A stretch of 6,996 nt of DNA from positions 1 to 6,996 of the IMG/VR virus record IMGVR_UViG_2671180417_000012. One strand, given 5' to 3'. The notes beneath the pieces were generated by a model. It made no database searches, had not been told where the DNA came from, and saw only the letters and a program-made list of their open reading frames with translations. Origin of the DNA: a virus. Lineage: Duplodnaviria; Heunggongvirae; Uroviricota; Caudoviricetes. Positions 4,055 through 6,996 of this stretch are shown here, piece by piece (within the stretch, counting starts at the first letter, position 1; every line of letters starts with the position of its first letter). The translations under genes were made by a program, and so were the position numbers.

Positions 4055-4480
4055 TTAGTGCATCACCACAGCATTCCCTGCCGGGCCGCCGCGATTCATC
4101 TGGTCATACAAAACAACCGCTGACGCAACAAAATCATCGACATCCTTCACCAGCCGATCCCTCCGTTCGACGATCTCACGGTAATATTCAGAACTGTGGC
4201 TGCGCATACGGGCCACCAGCAAAGGCGGCATCGCCTTTTCGATCGCCGGTAACAGAGCCTGCATTTTTTCAACAGCATCAGGGGTGTCTTTCTCTACCCA
4301 GCGGAAAATTTTCTGGGTATTGCGAGCCAGGGCTTCCGGATGGCTGTCGTCATACAGTTCCGGGAACGTCATTCCCAGCTCGAAATACGCTTTGGTAATT
4401 TTCGCAGCCGGTACTTTTTCGCCGTCCGGATGCGCCCAGACATTCATCGCCATGCGGATGTGTTCATGCTTGATTTTCAT
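4055..4480 (-). CDS. ydaT: YdaT-like protein (Rac-prophage family; CII-position gene)
   Basis: ATG at 4480-4478 overlaps the stop of the upstream Cro-like gene (ATGA overlap), with GGAG 7 nt upstream. The sequence (MKIKHEHIRMAMNVWAHPDGE...) matches my recollection of E. coli Rac YdaT; the 141-aa length fits. Confidence 0.85.
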   Translation of the reverse strand: MKIKHEHIRMAMNVWAHPDGEKVPAAKITKAYFELGMTFPELYDDSHPEALARNTQKIFRWVEKDTPDAVEKMQALLPAIEKAMPPLLVARMRSHSSEYYREIVERRDRLVKDVDDFVASAVVLYDQMNRGGPAGNAVVMH

Positions 4481-4779
4481 GAATCAACTCCATCAGATAA
4501 GCATGCACTACAATCACCTTCAGCATGAACTACATGTGTTTGCCCCAAACGAATGCCGCTCGCATACTCAGGCCAAATAAGCTCCCAATCATGGGGTCGT
4601 AGCTCCGCCCTACTTACTTGGCCTTCCGTCGCAGATTCGATCATAAGGGCGCGGGTTGGAGATATAGCTGTTCGTCCAGACGCCATTTGCGATAAGTAAG
4701 ATGGCGATACACCAAGTCTGGCCGCGAATTTCTTAGCATCACCAACCCTTAATGATTTAATAAACTCTTTTAATGTCAT
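4477..4779 (-). CDS. ydaS: Cro-like HTH protein, YdaS family
   Basis: ATG at 4779-4777 with SD GAGGAAGG (reverse complement of 4782-4789). HTH segment AKKFAARLGVSPSYLSQMASGRTAISP. First gene of the minus operon, divergent from the regulator gene. Confidence 0.85.
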   Translation of the reverse strand: MTLKEFIKSLRVGDAKKFAARLGVSPSYLSQMASGRTAISPTRALMIESATEGQVSRAELRPHDWELIWPEYASGIRLGQTHVVHAEGDCSACLSDGVDS

Positions 4780-4876: not shown

Positions 4877-5248
4877 ATGCAAAAAAAAGAAATTCGCCGT
4901 TTACGTCTCAAGGAGTGGTTTAAAGATAAAACTCTGCCACCCAAAGAGAAGAGCTACCTATCTCAACTAATGAGTGGGAGAGCCTCGTTTGGAGAAAAGG
5001 CTGCCAGAAGAATAGAGCAAACATACGGGATGCCGGAAGGGTATCTGGATGCGGAATACGCAGAACAACCGGGGGTTTCTCCACCACATGCAGGGTTAAC
5101 GTCTAATCAACTGGAATTATTGCAGATTTTTTCAGCCTTCCCTGAGGATGAGCAACGCCAGATAATCAGCGAGTTAAAGCAGAAAAAAGAATCAATGGAA
5201 GATCTCATAGCGAGATGGATTGCGGCGCAAAAATGCCGCCGCGCCTGA
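4877..5248 (+). CDS. paaR2: HTH transcriptional regulator (PaaR2-like; occupies the repressor position)
   Basis: ATG at 4877 with no SD, 7 nt after a GATAAT -10 (leaderless, like lambda cI from PRM). HTH segment SYLSQLMSGRASFGEKAARRIEQTYGM. The track's upstream GTG at 4814 would overlap the operators and is not preferred. The name is from memory of the O157:H7 paaR2-paaA2-parE2 locus. Confidence 0.8.
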   Translation: MQKKEIRRLRLKEWFKDKTLPPKEKSYLSQLMSGRASFGEKAARRIEQTYGMPEGYLDAEYAEQPGVSPPHAGLTSNQLELLQIFSAFPEDEQRQIISELKQKKESMEDLIARWIAAQKCRRA

Positions 5249-5268: not shown

Positions 5269-5460
5269 ATGAATAGAGCCCTTTCACCAATGGTTTCTGA
5301 ATTTGAAACCATTGAACAAGAAAACAGTTACAACGAATGGCTGCGTGCGAAAGTAGCAACGAGCCTTGCAGATCCGCGCCCAGCAATTCCCCATGACGAA
5401 GTTGAGCGCAGAATGGCAGAACGCTTTGCTAAGATGCGCAAGGAACGGAGCAAGCAGTAA
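5269..5460 (+). CDS. paaA2: small antitoxin of a ParE-type toxin-antitoxin module (PaaA2-like, 63 aa)
   Basis: ATG at 5269 preceded by GGAGGA (5260-5265). 63-aa charged, helix-prone protein, immediately upstream of the ParE-like gene with a 1-nt gap (TAA 5458-5460, ATG 5462). The track's upstream start at 5215 overlaps the regulator gene and is not preferred. Confidence 0.8.
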   Translation: MNRALSPMVSEFETIEQENSYNEWLRAKVATSLADPRPAIPHDEVERRMAERFAKMRKERSKQ

Positions 5461-5461
5461 A

Positions 5462-5740
5462 ATGTTACCCGTGTTATGGCTTGAAAGCGCAGATACCGAC
5501 CTAGATGATATAACTAGTTATATTGCTCGTTTCGACATAGATGCGGCTGAACGCTTATGGCAGCGATTAAGGGGTTGTGTGCTGCCGTTATCCGAACATC
5601 CGTATTTATACCCACCAAGCGACAGAGTACCTGGCTTGCGTGAGATTGTAGCCCACCCTAACTATATAATTCTATACCGCGTAACAACATCAAGCGTTGA
5701 AGTAGTAAACGTGATCCACGCAAGACGCCAGTTTCCCTAA
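5462..5740 (+). CDS. parE2: ParE/RelE-superfamily toxin (ParE2-like, 92 aa)
   Basis: ATG at 5462 (MLPVLWLESADTD...). Size, composition and conserved C-terminal region (HPNYIILYRV...VEVVNVIHARRQFP) fit the ParE family. Operon partner of the small antitoxin. The track's longer start at 5366 would overlap the antitoxin by 95 nt. Confidence 0.85.
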   Translation: MLPVLWLESADTDLDDITSYIARFDIDAAERLWQRLRGCVLPLSEHPYLYPPSDRVPGLREIVAHPNYIILYRVTTSSVEVVNVIHARRQFP

Positions 5741-5755
5741 CTTTCACTACCAATA

Positions 5756-5808
5756 GAAACATAACAACCGCAACGACTTTATCAAAAGCGTTGTGTTTGT
5801 TATGTTCC
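5756..5808 (+). terminator. long imperfect inverted repeat, possible terminator after the toxin gene
   Basis: About 18 bp pair between 5757-5775 and 5789-5806 (one mismatch, one G-U), with a 13-nt loop. A T-rich segment GGTTTAGTTTTT follows a few nt later. Begins 16 nt after the parE2-like stop. Confidence 0.4.
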
Positions 5809-5855
5809 GCGGTTTAGTTTTTACTTGACTTAAGTTTAATATTCATTAAACCAAA
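5809..5855 (+). promoter_or_regulatory. putative PL-like promoter with operator copy (OL-like)
   Basis: CGGTTTAGT (5810-5818) repeats the operator motif of the 4780-4876 region. TACTTGACTTAA (5822-5833) is identical to the context of the -35 TTGACT of the minus-strand promoter at 4832-4837 and contains the palindrome ACTTAAGT. No confident -10 (best TAAACC at 16-nt spacing). Confidence 0.4.
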
Positions 5856-6170
5856 AATACCAACCCACCCCGCCCCACAGAACGCAGGGAAATACTTCGA
5901 GTTACCCGGCAGTGGTCAGGGGTTAAGTAGCCAGCCCGAGGCGTATGAACATGACGGCAGGGTTCAACTTTAATAACTATGCAGCAGGTTTTTGTTCCGC
6001 TACCCCGGCGTTAAGGGGAAACAGAGGGTTTCTCAGTGGGCGAAGTCAAACATCAGAATGGAAGGCATCCCGGGATCGGCAAAGAAGCAGCAATGGCGCT
6101 TTATATTGACATCAGCGCCATTGCAGGACAGGTAAGAGTTATCAGAGCGGTAACTAAGCGGTATGCGCCT

Positions 6171-6371
6171 TTACTTCAGAAAGTCTCTGGTGAGTGCACC
6201 GAAGATATTGTCAACGATTTCGTCATCGAACTGCGAGGACTCATCTTCAGTTACAAGGTGACCACAATTTTTGCAGATGGCTCCCGCGAAACTGTCAGAG
6301 CCCTGCGGCTTAAAGGATGTGTCAAAGACTTCGCCACCACATTCTGGGCAAGAAAACTTGATTGTATTCAT
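6171..6371 (-). CDS. zinc-ribbon mini-protein (66 aa, CPxCG...CxxCG)
   Basis: ATG at 6371-6369 with SD GAGAGG/GAGGAA 8 nt upstream. Two CxxCG knuckles (CPECGG, CKNCGH) 17 residues apart, and an acidic C-terminal tail. Codon usage looks more E. coli-like than that of the overlapping plus-strand ORF 6036..6392, which uses AGA three times. Confidence 0.6.
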   Translation of the reverse strand: MNTIKFSCPECGGEVFDTSFKPQGSDSFAGAICKNCGHLVTEDESSQFDDEIVDNIFGALTRDFLK

Positions 6372-6463
6372 AACCAATTTCCTCTCGAGTAACAGACCCC
6401 TCAGAGGATACCACCTCGCCTGACGTGGTTAAAAGCAGGCAACGCTAACCACAAGGAGCCGAC

Positions 6464-6682
6464 ATGCAGAAACGAGAACCCGTCATCATCGCGCCAGACT
6501 ATACCGATGATGAACTTTATGAGTGGATGCACCAGAAAATTAATGCAGCGCAGGATCTGAAATGGGCCAATGAAGCCAGGGCTAAGCAGGCTGAAAATCT
6601 GTCCGCTCTGGAGCAGGATATCACCAATCTGGAAAAAGCAGCGGCATTAAGCATTGCCAGAATGATTACATACCCGCGTTAG
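6464..6682 (+). CDS. hypothetical small protein (72 aa)
   Basis: ATG at 6464 preceded by AAGGAG (6453-6458) with 5-nt spacing. Charged, helix-prone sequence. On the same strand as the presumed PL-like transcription. Confidence 0.6.
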   Translation: MQKREPVIIAPDYTDDELYEWMHQKINAAQDLKWANEARAKQAENLSALEQDITNLEKAAALSIARMITYPR

Positions 6683-6699
6683 TAGCTAATCAACAAAGC

Positions 6700-6996
6700 T
6701 AAGGTTAGTAATTAAGGAGTTCTCCACGGGTGAGGTGGAGTGCGTGCGCCGGACACGGGTGAGCATCCGGCACTGACAGTTTACTGAAAGGATATTTCCC
6801 TGAAAAGTCAGACCATAACGCGAAAGCGCACGGCGAGGTAGCTGGTTCATAGATAGCCTGTCGTTAAATTTTCGTCGACCGTGCGCTTCCGGTTGTGGCA
6901 ACCCGCGAAATGGCGCGGCGGTAAGTATGGCGGGGTTATTCCTTCCCCCGTTGAGGACACCGGGTTGTCAGGTTGACCATACGCTTAAGTGACAAC
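6700..6996 (+). other. GC-rich, hairpin-dense non-coding region (candidate structured RNA), continuing past the window end
   Basis: No plausible ORF on either strand. Adjacent hairpins CTCCAC-GGGTGAG-GTGGAG (6722-6740) and GCCGGA-CACGGGTGAGCA-TCCGGC (6748-6771) both display the decamer CACGGGTGAG. Further stems: GCGCACGG (6826-6833) with CCGTGCGC (6880-6887), CCGCG-AAATGG-CGCGG (6903-6918), GTATGG (6925-6930) with CCATAC (6977-6982). Confidence 0.3.

Follow-up and report, generated by a model that had tools for sequence, protein, structure and literature searches.

The window analysed here, 6,996 nucleotides (nt) in all, is the immunity region of an O157 Sp12/CP-933P-type prophage. On its plus strand, a PL-type promoter is followed by a mosaic, strongly conserved leader (positions 5857 to 6018) that begins at the probable transcription start of PL, and a zinc-ribbon gene converges on it from the minus strand. 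The first-pass annotation had called the leftward promoter putative, and this call is borne out by a near-identical copy in CP-933P, the experimentally active PL933P (PMC8630535). In the published work, PL933P was active in a gfp fusion and was repressed about 100-fold by PaaR2 or YdaS; because the fusions ended at the start site, they never contained the leader (PMC8630535). The -10 sequence of the window copy is TAAACC, compared to TAAACT in PL933P. Transcription probably starts at about 5857 to 5859; conservation among relatives opens at 5857, with ATACC. The features of the locus are as follows.

5825 to 5852, plus strand: PL-type promoter, read from the sequence, with -35 TTGACT (5825-5830) and -10 TAAACC (5847-5852).
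5857 to 5866, plus strand: C/A-rich 5' tail; AACCC at 5862-5866 is the 5' strand of a proposed closing helix, P0.
5867 to 5923, plus strand: stem I, a long irregular hairpin (fold shared by 12 lineages; covariation).
5867-5871/5919-5923, plus strand: segment Pa of stem I.
5875-5878/5912-5915, plus strand: segment Pb of stem I.
5879 to 5883, plus strand: 5' bulge of stem I, AGAAC.
5884-5889/5905-5910, plus strand: segment Pc of stem I.
5891-5893/5901-5903, plus strand: apical part of stem I, with loop ACUUCGA within conserved CAAUAC-NNN-GAGUUA.
5924 to 5958, plus strand: near-invariant core UAAGUAGCCAGCCCGAGGC-GUAU-GAACAUGACGGC (invariant columns of alignments A1 and A2).
5930-5932/5940-5942, plus strand: small predicted hairpin P2, which never varies.
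5938 to 5941, plus strand: Shine-Dalgarno (SD)-like GAGG.
5951 to 5953, plus strand: conserved AUG.
5951 to 6109, plus strand: leader open reading frame (ORF) of 52 codons plus stop (MTAGFNFNNYAAGFCSATPALRGN...), the stop lying inside the 6090-6124 hairpin.
5960 to 5964, plus strand: 3' strand of P0, GGGUU, spanning leader ORF codons 4 and 5 and pairing with AACCC at 5862-5866.
5965 to 5993, plus strand: stretch that varies, with small hairpins particular to each lineage, ahead of conserved GCAGCAGG (5981-5988) and a U run.
5994 to 6018, plus strand: 3' module, GUUCCGCU followed by a terminal hairpin, CCCC-GGCGUUAA-GGGG (6003-6018).
6090 to 6124, minus strand: 11-bp inverted repeat GCAATGGCGCT..AGCGCCATTGC, 46 nt after the zinc-ribbon stop and followed by UGCUUCUUUGCC.
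6171 to 6377, minus strand: zinc-ribbon gene (NCBIfam NF047912, 57.2 bits against a cutoff of 37).

The strand of the zinc-ribbon gene was assigned from the NCBIfam match, as the substitution patterns across 6171-6377 offered only three informative sites. pPE4 gp07 was rejected as a homologue. The inverted repeat at 6090-6124 is probably the terminator or a 3' stabiliser of this convergent gene and would then lie outside the leader. No plus-strand terminator was found between 5600 and 6500. In the window, the first gene of the operon has been replaced by the zinc-ribbon moron, and this replacement together with the T-to-C change in the -10 sequence suggests that the window copy may be poorly expressed.

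Alignment across related prophages, which the first-pass annotation had proposed, separated the element from its surroundings. Positions 5857 to 6021 were 87 to 99% conserved in thousands of E. coli prophages, with differing flanks, and 74.5% conserved in an Actinobacillus phage. The leader was found in most complete E. coli genomes, including the Rac copy of K-12 between racR and ydaG, as well as in prophages of Arsenophonus, Symbiopectobacterium, Serratia, and Pectobacterium and in the one Actinobacillus phage. It is restricted to phages of two related orders, and none of the classical lambdoid phages in the phage collection carried the core. The same ~165 nt stand behind unrelated operators, including HK022-type operators in phages Tritos and MIN6, and the first gene varies between ydfA, ydaG, an HNH gene, nutL with N, and none. 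Since the same leader follows unrelated operators and precedes unrelated first genes, it is a modular RNA cassette and no ordinary gene. Inspection of neighbouring genes across lineages identified no co-conserved protein partner; the repressor, Cro, and cII types all vary. The leader is a single-copy element. A search of the window for a second copy gave one hit of 138 bits, with the next best at 9 bits (filters off), and the related loci gave one hit per immunity region.

This leader RNA has apparently not been described so far. The covariance search against RNA families that the annotation had suggested yielded no relevant match. In a cmscan of the whole window against Rfam 15, at E values up to 1, no family matched the leader, and the only matches (mir-4703 at 5756-5808 and a CRISPR repeat at 1222-1260) were due to chance. 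A literature search by sequence string and gene names gave no account of the element. The known element trac was rejected as a candidate, being a Rho terminator within racR, upstream of the element.

A long irregular hairpin with covarying helices is the predicted fold of the first ~108 nt, and this model is well supported. About 17 to 20 bp, stacked in three segments, make up stem I, which has a conserved 5' bulge and is found directly 5' of the SD. An identical stem I architecture was predicted independently in 12 lineages with differing helix sequences; stem lengths and internal loops vary by lineage. In an alignment of 51 distinct rows that was fitted to the model, 86.1% of the cells of stem I and the invariant P2 could pair, compared to 69.3% in shuffles (0 of 500 as high), and 14 of the 20 pairs showed changes on both sides. 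Controls with slid pairings paired at 22 to 49%. The single-sequence folding energy was not better than that of shuffled sequences (z = +1.2 for the plus strand and +1.9 for the minus strand). Given a plain MAFFT alignment, RNAalifold failed because helix lengths differ among lineages, and its one proposal was a sterically implausible GUUAC/GUAGC pairing.

The C-rich tract ACCAACCCACCCCGCCCCACAGAAC that the annotation had pointed out is present at 5859-5883, one base away from the 5860-5884 given there, and forms the 5' strand of stem I. The annotation had offered a rut site or a small RNA as possible functions of the region. A Rho-loading (rut) site, or a trans-acting small RNA or sponge derived from the 5' end of the PL transcript, would agree with the C/A-rich, G-poor 5' end, and a processed small RNA, DicF, already comes from the same operon. 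However, the tract is one strand of covarying helices and is predicted to be base-paired in every lineage, and the domain is not followed by an intrinsic terminator or a conserved 3' end. In Hfq CRAC data from O157 Sakai there is no peak at the Sp12 locus, though PL is repressed in lysogens. The enterohemorrhagic E. coli (EHEC) prophage small RNAs AgvB, AsxR, and Pas, which were rejected as candidates along with EcOnc04, also all map to the late region. We consider either function very unlikely.

The 5' tail is probably joined by P0 to the codons after the AUG, closing a three-way junction in which stem I, the SD hairpin P2, and the start codon would be brought together. The counterparts of P0 elsewhere are different in sequence but still complementary (AACAAC/GUUGUU, CAGCAAC/GUUGCUG, and CCAACC/GGUUGG). 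Duplexes between matched tails and post-AUG segments had a mean energy of -6.31 kcal/mol, versus -4.50 kcal/mol for mismatched ones, with only 2 of 20,000 permutations as good. All five P0 pairs showed changes on both sides, with one fixed register pairing just 56.5% of cells; the register varies by lineage, and in Serratia and K-12-type copies the helix is short, weak, or missing. The three-way junction scores -27.8 kcal/mol, and the minimum free energy of 5857-5968 is -29.2 kcal/mol.

The core has the consensus UAAGUAGCCAGCCYGAGGC-N-GAACAUGAMGGC, in which the linker between GAGGC and GAAC is variable, with a 2-nt indel among copies. The distance from GAGG to AUG is 9 nt, or 7 nt in a few copies, and this spacing holds in every lineage. 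Only three endosymbiont or MAG copies lack the AUG. The annotation had dismissed the 54-codon frame for having its SD too close to the ATG. This objection falls away, as the frame holds another conserved ATG, at 5951, whose distance of 9 nt from GAGG (5938-5941) is normal for an SD. The conservation of the SD is partly built into the sample, because the collection patterns required GAGGC or AAGTAGCC. The invariant block reaches well past the SD and AUG, to UAAGUAGCCAGCC, GAAC, and ACGGC, and the core also takes in UAAGUAGCC. GAGG and AUG may therefore be mere junction nucleotides of an element that works at the RNA level.

The ORF that opens at the conserved AUG ranges from 4 to 78 codons in the relatives, starts with M-(T/K)-A, and is unrelated after codon 5. 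Its lengths fit a random distribution, and many of its stops are far from the next gene. Judging from the predicted product, at least one phage (L295) starts a real gene at the conserved AUG, a 143-amino-acid HNH endonuclease ORF (Pfam HNH_3, 4.9e-10). The stop of the leader ORF overlaps or abuts the start of the next gene in L328, L140, L148, K-12 Rac, and L329. In L328 it overlaps the AUG of the next gene, and in K-12 Rac and L329 it is a UAA in the terminal hairpin loop. In nut-type phages, the mini-ORF mostly ends 8 to 9 nt before boxA.

A conserved small protein, encoded by the 54-codon frame or by a minus-strand frame, would also account for the conserved SD and AUG and for the shared first three codons. 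MTAVV-like peptides occur in several distant lineages with some synonymous differences, and three variable core sites are spaced three or six bases apart, which hinted at a gene on either strand. However, the length of the plus-strand ORF and its divergence between lineages past codon 5 argue against a protein product, stops interrupt the minus-strand and other plus-strand frames in most copies, conserved nucleotides do not keep one reading frame, and no protein family matches. We regard such a protein as highly improbable. The whole element was likewise rejected as coding sequence, since many copies have stops in all frames, the core linker carries the 2-nt indel, and the frame in which GUUCCG is read changes from lineage to lineage. 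The annotated minus-strand ORF of the Actinobacillus phage (gp08) crosses the promoter and looks spurious. The first-pass annotation had found no convincing gene here. That judgment stands insofar as no ORF within 5856-6170 matched a protein family and no conserved coding frame was found in the alignments of homologues, but it dismissed translation too quickly.

Between P0 and the 3' module, the region from 5965 to 5993 varies in length and sequence among E. coli subtypes and other lineages, and no consistent fold was found for it across lineages. GCAGYAG is kept; the U run at 5989-5993 is not conserved. The GC hairpin CCCC-GGCGTTAA-GGGG that the annotation had placed at 6002-6017 is present one base further on, at 6003-6018, with an 8-nt loop, GGCGUUAA. 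In relatives, the 3' module lies directly 5' of the SD of the first gene, and in the mEp460 and PPompW phages it occurs alone, without the 5' domain. The terminal stem shows compensatory changes among relatives: Pectobacterium has GCCG-GGCGACAA-CGGC, Serratia has GCCG-GAAAGA-CGGC or GCCAG-GAAAGA-CUGGC, and Superficieibacter has GCC-GCGUUAA-GGC. When we looked for a common fold of the module (GGCGGGA/UUCCGCC versus GAAC/GUUC), the predictions differed by lineage. Arsenophonus and Symbiopectobacterium have boxA and boxB, or a gene directly, in place of the 3' module.

The annotation had compared this position with that of nutL or put in lambdoid phages, and a conserved RNA element does sit where lambda has nutL and HK022 has putL. 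Among the functions it listed for the RNA (antitermination, processing, rut, or small RNA), the expectation of a conserved RNA element was upheld, but we found no nut site, no significant similarity to put, no free rut site, and no small RNA defined by a terminator. As the annotation had also noted, there is no canonical boxA. The boxA pattern CGCTCTTTA, with up to two mismatches, matched 21 times in the window, compared to 18.9 expected, and not once in 5857-6022. A boxB with a purine-rich GAAAA-type loop is likewise absent from the window leader, and the leader was rejected as a nut site on both grounds. The terminal loops of relatives include GAAAGA in Serratia and UGAAAAA in Arsenophonus. 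No N-like arginine-rich protein was found in the E. coli relatives or in the window, which ends before the whole operon does. N-like ARM proteins occurred only at the nut-bearing Arsenophonus and Symbiopectobacterium loci, which have, 3' of the domain, a genuine boxA/boxB/boxC (boxA match CGCTCTTTAAC) with an N-like gene. The domain and nut are thus separate modules.

HK022 put is a ~74-nt RNA with two stems and a pseudoknot/triplex (PMC9378689). The leader is similar to put in following PL directly, sometimes behind HK022-type operators, and in occurring in phages without N. In contrast, it is a ~108-nt junction with a 57-nt hairpin, is present in a single copy, contains an SD and an AUG, and coexists with nut and N in some phages. 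A factor-independent antiterminator or antipausing RNA like put, whose folded domain stays on RNA polymerase through terminators such as the dicF terminator, would explain the putL position and its occurrence behind the operators of Tritos and MIN6. The Rac/Qin-type operons with the leader encode no N-like protein, and near-invariant single-stranded sequence across genera would be in keeping with a target in the conserved host machinery, for example RNA polymerase. However, local alignments with HK022 putL and putR were within the shuffle distribution (the best score, 32 for putR, equalled the best of 200 shuffles), and a search of HK022 with model R1 found nothing. The architecture is unlike that of the pseudoknotted two-stem put (PMC9378689), and the window has no second copy on the PR side. 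The same domain stands beside a complete nutL and N in Arsenophonus and Symbiopectobacterium, and Qin-type relatives with the same downstream genes lack the leader. We consider antitermination of this kind distinctly unlikely.

Our preferred reading, to which we give a tentative probability of about 0.4, is that 5857-6018 is the transcribed 5' leader of the early-left (PL) operon and acts in cis by gating ribosome loading. The position at the PL start, the covariation, the conserved SD and AUG, and the predicted use of the AUG by the HNH gene of L295 all agree with a leader that would hold a working translation initiation region. The fold would gate 30S access to the SD and AUG and so time ribosome loading on the nascent PL transcript. 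A ribosome starting at 5951 would translate a short leader ORF, the sequence of which would be irrelevant. In relatives, where this ORF stops at or beside the terminal hairpin and the first gene's SD, its translation would open the hairpin and couple into the operon. Translation would also shield the long leader from Rho. Stabilising or melting the junction would then set the expression of toxic or host-takeover early-left genes, such as kil and dicB. Candidate triggers range from a ligand or a conserved host factor to RNase III and the kinetics of folding.

Several known leaders share parts of this arrangement. The Salmonella corA and mgtA leaders contain short ORFs and are subject to Rho-dependent attenuation. 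The similarity to our leader is a short, poorly conserved ORF in a structured leader; in contrast to corA and mgtA, neither an alternative terminator/antiterminator pair nor a mapped rut site was found, and the conserved part is the initiation region rather than the peptide or the stop. In lambda, the cro stop lies ahead of the nutR site, and the leader ORF stop similarly lies just 5' of a functional RNA site or the next start. The lambda N leader carries an RNase III hairpin before N, and R1.1 of T7 is an RNase III processing signal. Like the lambda N leader, the element is a long, structured early-left leader with a large hairpin just 5' of a translation start. However, it is unrelated in sequence, lacks boxA and boxB, comes from a window without N, and has its start codon inside the conserved fold. 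Its irregular hairpin, in which an asymmetric internal loop separates an upper from a lower stem, resembles R1.1, whereas its position at the 5' end of the transcript and not between cistrons, with an invariant core downstream, does not.

These parallels with lambda and T7 also bear on a possible second role for stem I, as an RNase III (or RNase E) processing or stability element whose cleavage would set the stability or translatability of PL mRNA. The length of the stem, its stacked segments and conserved 5' bulge, and its place directly 5' of the SD agree with such a role. However, it leaves the invariance of the apical loop and of the core 3' of the stem unexplained, and stem lengths and internal loops differ by lineage, so that we consider it quite unlikely.

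The multihelix junction with invariant junction nucleotides is an architecture compatible with a riboswitch, which would bind a ligand. An aptamer-like sensor for a host protein or small molecule, with the SD and AUG as a built-in expression platform, is a refinement of the ribosome-gating leader and not a true alternative. Covarying helices around invariant junction nucleotides are the usual signature of riboswitches and operators, and the initiation region lies inside the fold. Protein-bound 5' untranslated region (5' UTR) motifs are known in phage early operons, where Aca1 and Aca2 bind the 5' UTRs of acr operons (bioRxiv 10.64898/2026.07.27.740549). As in our leader, these are structured motifs that run from the transcription start of a phage early operon and lie at or overlap the ribosome-binding site. 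In contrast, they are simple hairpins with a coencoded HTH protein, whereas the leader is a larger junction with no evident covarying partner. No phage protein is encoded beside the element in all lineages, the gene context points to no ligand, and only phages of two related orders carry the element. We regard the sensor as a fairly unlikely refinement.

In the most far-reaching reading, which we find rather doubtful, the leader would represent a class of phage riboregulators that is new. It would work as a sensor, be it a riboswitch or an operator for a host factor, or else modify the transcription-translation machinery without protein factors, as put does, in either case deciding the expression of the host-killing early-left operon in Rac-, Qin-, and Sp12-type prophages. 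Lambdoid early-left operons encode cell-division inhibitors and other toxic or antidefence genes, such as kilR, dicB, and dicF, and because these operons are leaky, K-12 cannot do without Rho and the prophage repressors. If the riboregulator exists, it has gone unannotated in most E. coli genomes, including K-12, and also occurs in phages that infect insect symbionts, plant pathogens, and Pasteurellaceae. The leader accounts for annotators finding no gene after PL933P, and it would be an addition to the known phage leader RNAs, so far nut and put. A conserved, folded leader around the first ribosome-binding site would add an unrecognised step of control, after promoter repression and before gene expression, which most E. 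coli genomes contain and which passes between immunity types as a cassette.

The window covers the immunity region of a lambdoid prophage (Qin-site) of the E. coli O157 Sp12/CP-933P type, and a leader element lies on its plus strand downstream of the early promoter PL. The surrounding genes and signals are as follows.

Minus strand: O-like and DnaC-like replication genes
4055-4480, minus strand: YdaT
4477-4779, minus strand: YdaS-type Cro
4877-5248, plus strand: repressor PaaR2
5269-5740, plus strand: PaaA2/ParE2 toxin-antitoxin pair
5825-5830 (TTGACT) and 5847-5852 (TAAACC): PL promoter, the published PL933P
6090-6124: 11-bp inverted repeat, 46 nt past the stop of the zinc-ribbon gene
6171-6377, minus strand: convergent zinc-ribbon gene (ECs_2282 family of NCBIfam; score 57 bits, cut-off 37)
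6464-6682, plus strand: ydfC

The simplest reading of the 6090-6124 repeat is a terminator of the zinc-ribbon gene. Annotation is in conflict here, with a plus-strand 118-aa ORF (6036-6392) in the GenBank PPompW phage records and the minus-strand zinc-ribbon protein in RefSeq. NCBIfam favors the minus-strand gene, and of only three informative substitutions, two are synonymous on the minus strand and none on the plus strand. A long, imperfect inverted repeat at 5756-5808, past the parE2 stop and ahead of the PL operators, gave a chance match to a microRNA model; it may terminate the paaR2-paaA2-parE2 operon or work as a bidirectional terminator. At the left edge, positions 1-96 recur at tens of thousands of sites across E. 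coli chromosomes and plasmids, with a median of 10 per genome; positions 97-260 match prophage DNA, and the junction is absent from every complete genome. The 1-96 segment appears to be one end of an insertion sequence that entered the prophage; it resembles the left end of IS1, with insA beginning on the minus strand. The GC-rich spacer 3' of ydfC (6683-6996) has several hairpins and no Rfam match; by synteny with phage Tritos and with Sakai, it corresponds to the region upstream of dicF, a gene lying just past the window end.

PL933P of CP-933P has three operators and was active in a gfp fusion, with roughly 100-fold repression by PaaR2 or YdaS; no function could be assigned to the downstream ORFs (PMC8630535). 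The published gfp fusion stopped at the start site (primer R-PL), and the leader was therefore outside the assayed fragment (PMC8630535). The window copy differs from the characterized promoter of Sakai Sp12 and LSU61 at 5841, 5844, and 5852, the last giving a -10 hexamer of TAAACC rather than TAAACT. The missing final T should weaken the promoter, and since the first gene is also missing, the element may be poorly expressed in this particular copy.

Alignment across related prophages had been suggested in the first-pass annotation; by BLAST, 5857-6021 is conserved as a separate mobile module whose flanks on either side vary from copy to copy. Of 5426 complete E. coli genomes, 3758 have matches to the 5800-6060 segment, which contains the module, with as many as eight in one genome; some matches cover the 3' module only. 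The module is also present in 12 deposited phages; the feature is real and extremely widespread. Upstream there is always an immunity repressor gene (RacR, HK022-like CI, LexA-like CI, or a DicA-like protein) and a promoter, and the first downstream gene is ydfA, ydaG, or none; in K-12 the element lies unannotated in Rac between racR and ydaG. Conservation begins at the predicted transcription start (ATACC) and stops at the Shine-Dalgarno (SD) sequence of the first gene. The element is a conserved, modular leader at the transcription start. In a species-wide scan, the 5' two-thirds of the element was found in prophages of Arsenophonus, Phlomobacter, Symbiopectobacterium, Serratia, Pectobacterium, and Superficieibacter, and an Actinobacillus phage copy shows 74.5% identity. 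The parts of the leader in the window are as follows.

5862-5866 with 5960-5964: probable closing helix P0
5867-5923: stem I
5930-5932 with 5940-5942: P2, a small, invariant putative hairpin around the SD
5965-5993: variable hairpin region, then GCAGCAGG
5994-6018: 3' module, GUUCCGCU plus the terminal hairpin
6003-6018: terminal hairpin, CCCC-GGCGTTAA-GGGG

The single-sequence fold of the element was no better than those of shuffles. Folded separately, twelve lineages gave one common architecture, with a C/A-rich 5' tail of 10-13 nt, three stacked helices (Pa, Pb, and Pc) with an internal loop and a 5' bulge between them (the bulge is AGAAC in E. coli), and an apical loop inside the conserved CAAUAC-NNN-GAGUUA. 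The helix sequences are wholly different between lineages, Pb being CCAC/GUGG, CAG/CUG, GGCAAA/UUUGCC, GGCAAU/AUUGCC, GGCAGAA/UUCUGCC, or CGCAU/AUGCG. A covariance model trained on 27 E. coli copies recovered every lineage (45-138 bits). In the resulting alignment, which was fitted to that model, 86.1% of cells pair compared with 69.3% in shuffles (0 of 500), both partners have changed in 14 of 20 pairs, and sliding the partners by one to three columns lowers pairing to 22-49%. At the level of sequence comparison, the hairpin covaries and the element is a folded RNA. The C-rich tract and the CCCC/GGGG hairpin of the first-pass annotation are present at 5859-5883 and 6003-6018, each one base from where it had placed them. 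Its suggestion of a rut site is disfavored in the sense of a free site, because the tract forms the 5' strand of stem helices with a G-rich partner at 5912-5923. RNase III cleavage of stem I is one candidate for how the folded leader acts.

Stem I is followed by a nearly invariant core, UAAGUAGCCAGCCYGAGGC, a variable linker of 2-4 nt (some Symbiopectobacterium copies carry a 2-nt indel), and GAACAUGAMGGC. GAGG lies 9 nt from the AUG at 5951 (7 nt in the indel copies), and this AUG is missing only in three endosymbiont or MAG copies. The earlier view that the region lacks a good gene holds in that no ORF of the region matched a protein family, but it considered only a nonconserved ATG at 5945 and missed the conserved AUG with its normally spaced GAGG. 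A gene spanning the element as a whole was rejected, as frames are interrupted, the conserved GUUCCG falls in differing frames by lineage, and the peptide itself lacks conservation. From the conserved AUG, the ORF always reads M-(T/K)-A first, then diverges, and has 4 to 78 codons. In one phage (L295:5361-5792), a 143-aa HNH endonuclease (Pfam HNH_3, 4.9e-10), the first gene of the early-left operon, starts exactly at this AUG. Elsewhere the short ORF stops in overlap with the next AUG (L328), a few to about 11 bases ahead of it (L140 and L148), or at the UAA in the terminal hairpin loop (K-12 Rac and L329). Its stop in nut-bearing Arsenophonus phages usually falls 8-9 nt ahead of boxA, and a stop shortly before boxA is the arrangement of cro and nutR in lambda. 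The HNH start, the stops at or near the next start, and the stops before boxA suggest that the conserved AUG is used; on sequence grounds, the invariant SD-AUG region serves at least one phage as a genuine start. Whether the leader ORF ends at the loop UAA or continues in frame into ydfA as a predicted 77-78-aa fusion depends on the number of C residues in the run of the terminal hairpin (CCCC or CCC; 6003-6006 and equivalents in L029, L097, L099, and L125), and both states are common in E. coli prophages.

The 5' tail ends in 5-7 nt that complement the codons right after AUG-ACG-GCR, and both strands change together between lineages.

E. coli: tail AACCC, after AUG GGGUU
Actinobacillus type: tail AACAAC, after AUG GUUGUU
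Pectobacterium: tail CAGCAAC, after AUG GUUGCUG
L336: tail CACAAC, after AUG GUUGUG
Symbiopectobacterium: tail CCAACC, after AUG GGUUGG
Arsenophonus: tail UCACU, after AUG AGUGA
L295 (HNH phage): tail CAGCAA, after AUG UUGCUG

Duplexes with their own partners average -6.31 kcal/mol compared with -4.50 kcal/mol for swapped partners, and 2 of 20000 permutations were as good. In a fixed register all five pairs show double changes, and only 56.5% of cells pair because the P0 register differs among lineages. P0 is thus a probable helix, while P2 is unproven because it never varies. As modeled, the domain is probably a three-way junction of P0, stem I, and P2 enclosing the SD and AUG; in the window this fold has -27.8 kcal/mol compared with -29.2 kcal/mol for the minimum. 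In Arsenophonus type ii copies (L135, L139, L155, L157, and L168), a second complement of the tail AACUCACU, namely AGUGAGUU, lies about 100 nt farther downstream, past the boxB-like hairpin and ahead of the boxC-like tract; the two may form an alternative long-range pairing, seen in this lineage only.

For the 3' part, no fold common to all lineages was found. The 3' module is independent, as mEp460 and PPompW phages lack the 5' domain and have the module behind a short, simple hairpin. Its stem shows compensatory changes in Pectobacterium, Serratia, and Superficieibacter. In the Qin-type (DicA/DicC) phages mEp460 (L175:2440-2530) and PPompW (L176:2455-2530), the short leader is AUCAAGACACCGCACGGUGUUCUCAGCAAACAGUUCCGCUACCCCGGCGUUAAGGGG, with the simple hairpin in place of the whole 5' domain. 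Arsenophonus and Symbiopectobacterium instead have, after the 5' domain, either a gene directly or boxA, a boxB-like hairpin, and a GU-rich boxC-like tract with an N-like arginine-rich protein. Copies from Arsenophonus (L128, L132, L135, and L155) and Symbiopectobacterium (L133 and L142) carry the canonical boxA CGCTCTTTAAC, a boxB-like hairpin such as TCGCTGAAAAAGCGA, and the boxC-like tract TTTTGGGGTGTGTG. By its motifs, this arrangement is a nutL preceded by a mini-ORF.

The first-pass annotation had rightly found no boxA in the element, and its proposal of a nut site was rejected; coexistence with true nut sites elsewhere makes the element a different module. HK022 put, a pseudoknotted RNA of 74 nt, binds the beta-prime zinc-binding domain (PMC9378689), whereas the element has another size and fold, a single copy in the window and in each related immunity region searched, and no significant similarity, so membership in the put family was also rejected. 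A put-like effect on RNA polymerase is a candidate for its action. The small RNA suggestion did not lead to a known one, since the O157 prophage sRNAs AgvB, AsxR, EcOnc, and Pas are located in the late region, and the proposed covariance search against known RNA models matched no Rfam 15 family.

In the mechanism that we propose, at a probability of roughly 40% for the whole, the fold would gate ribosome loading on the PL transcript, and leader translation would open the terminal hairpin, couple into the first gene, and shield the leader from Rho. A host factor or ligand is a further candidate for the trigger. Text searches of the literature by sequence and gene names found no description of the element, which represents a new family within a known kind, the phage early-operon leader RNAs.
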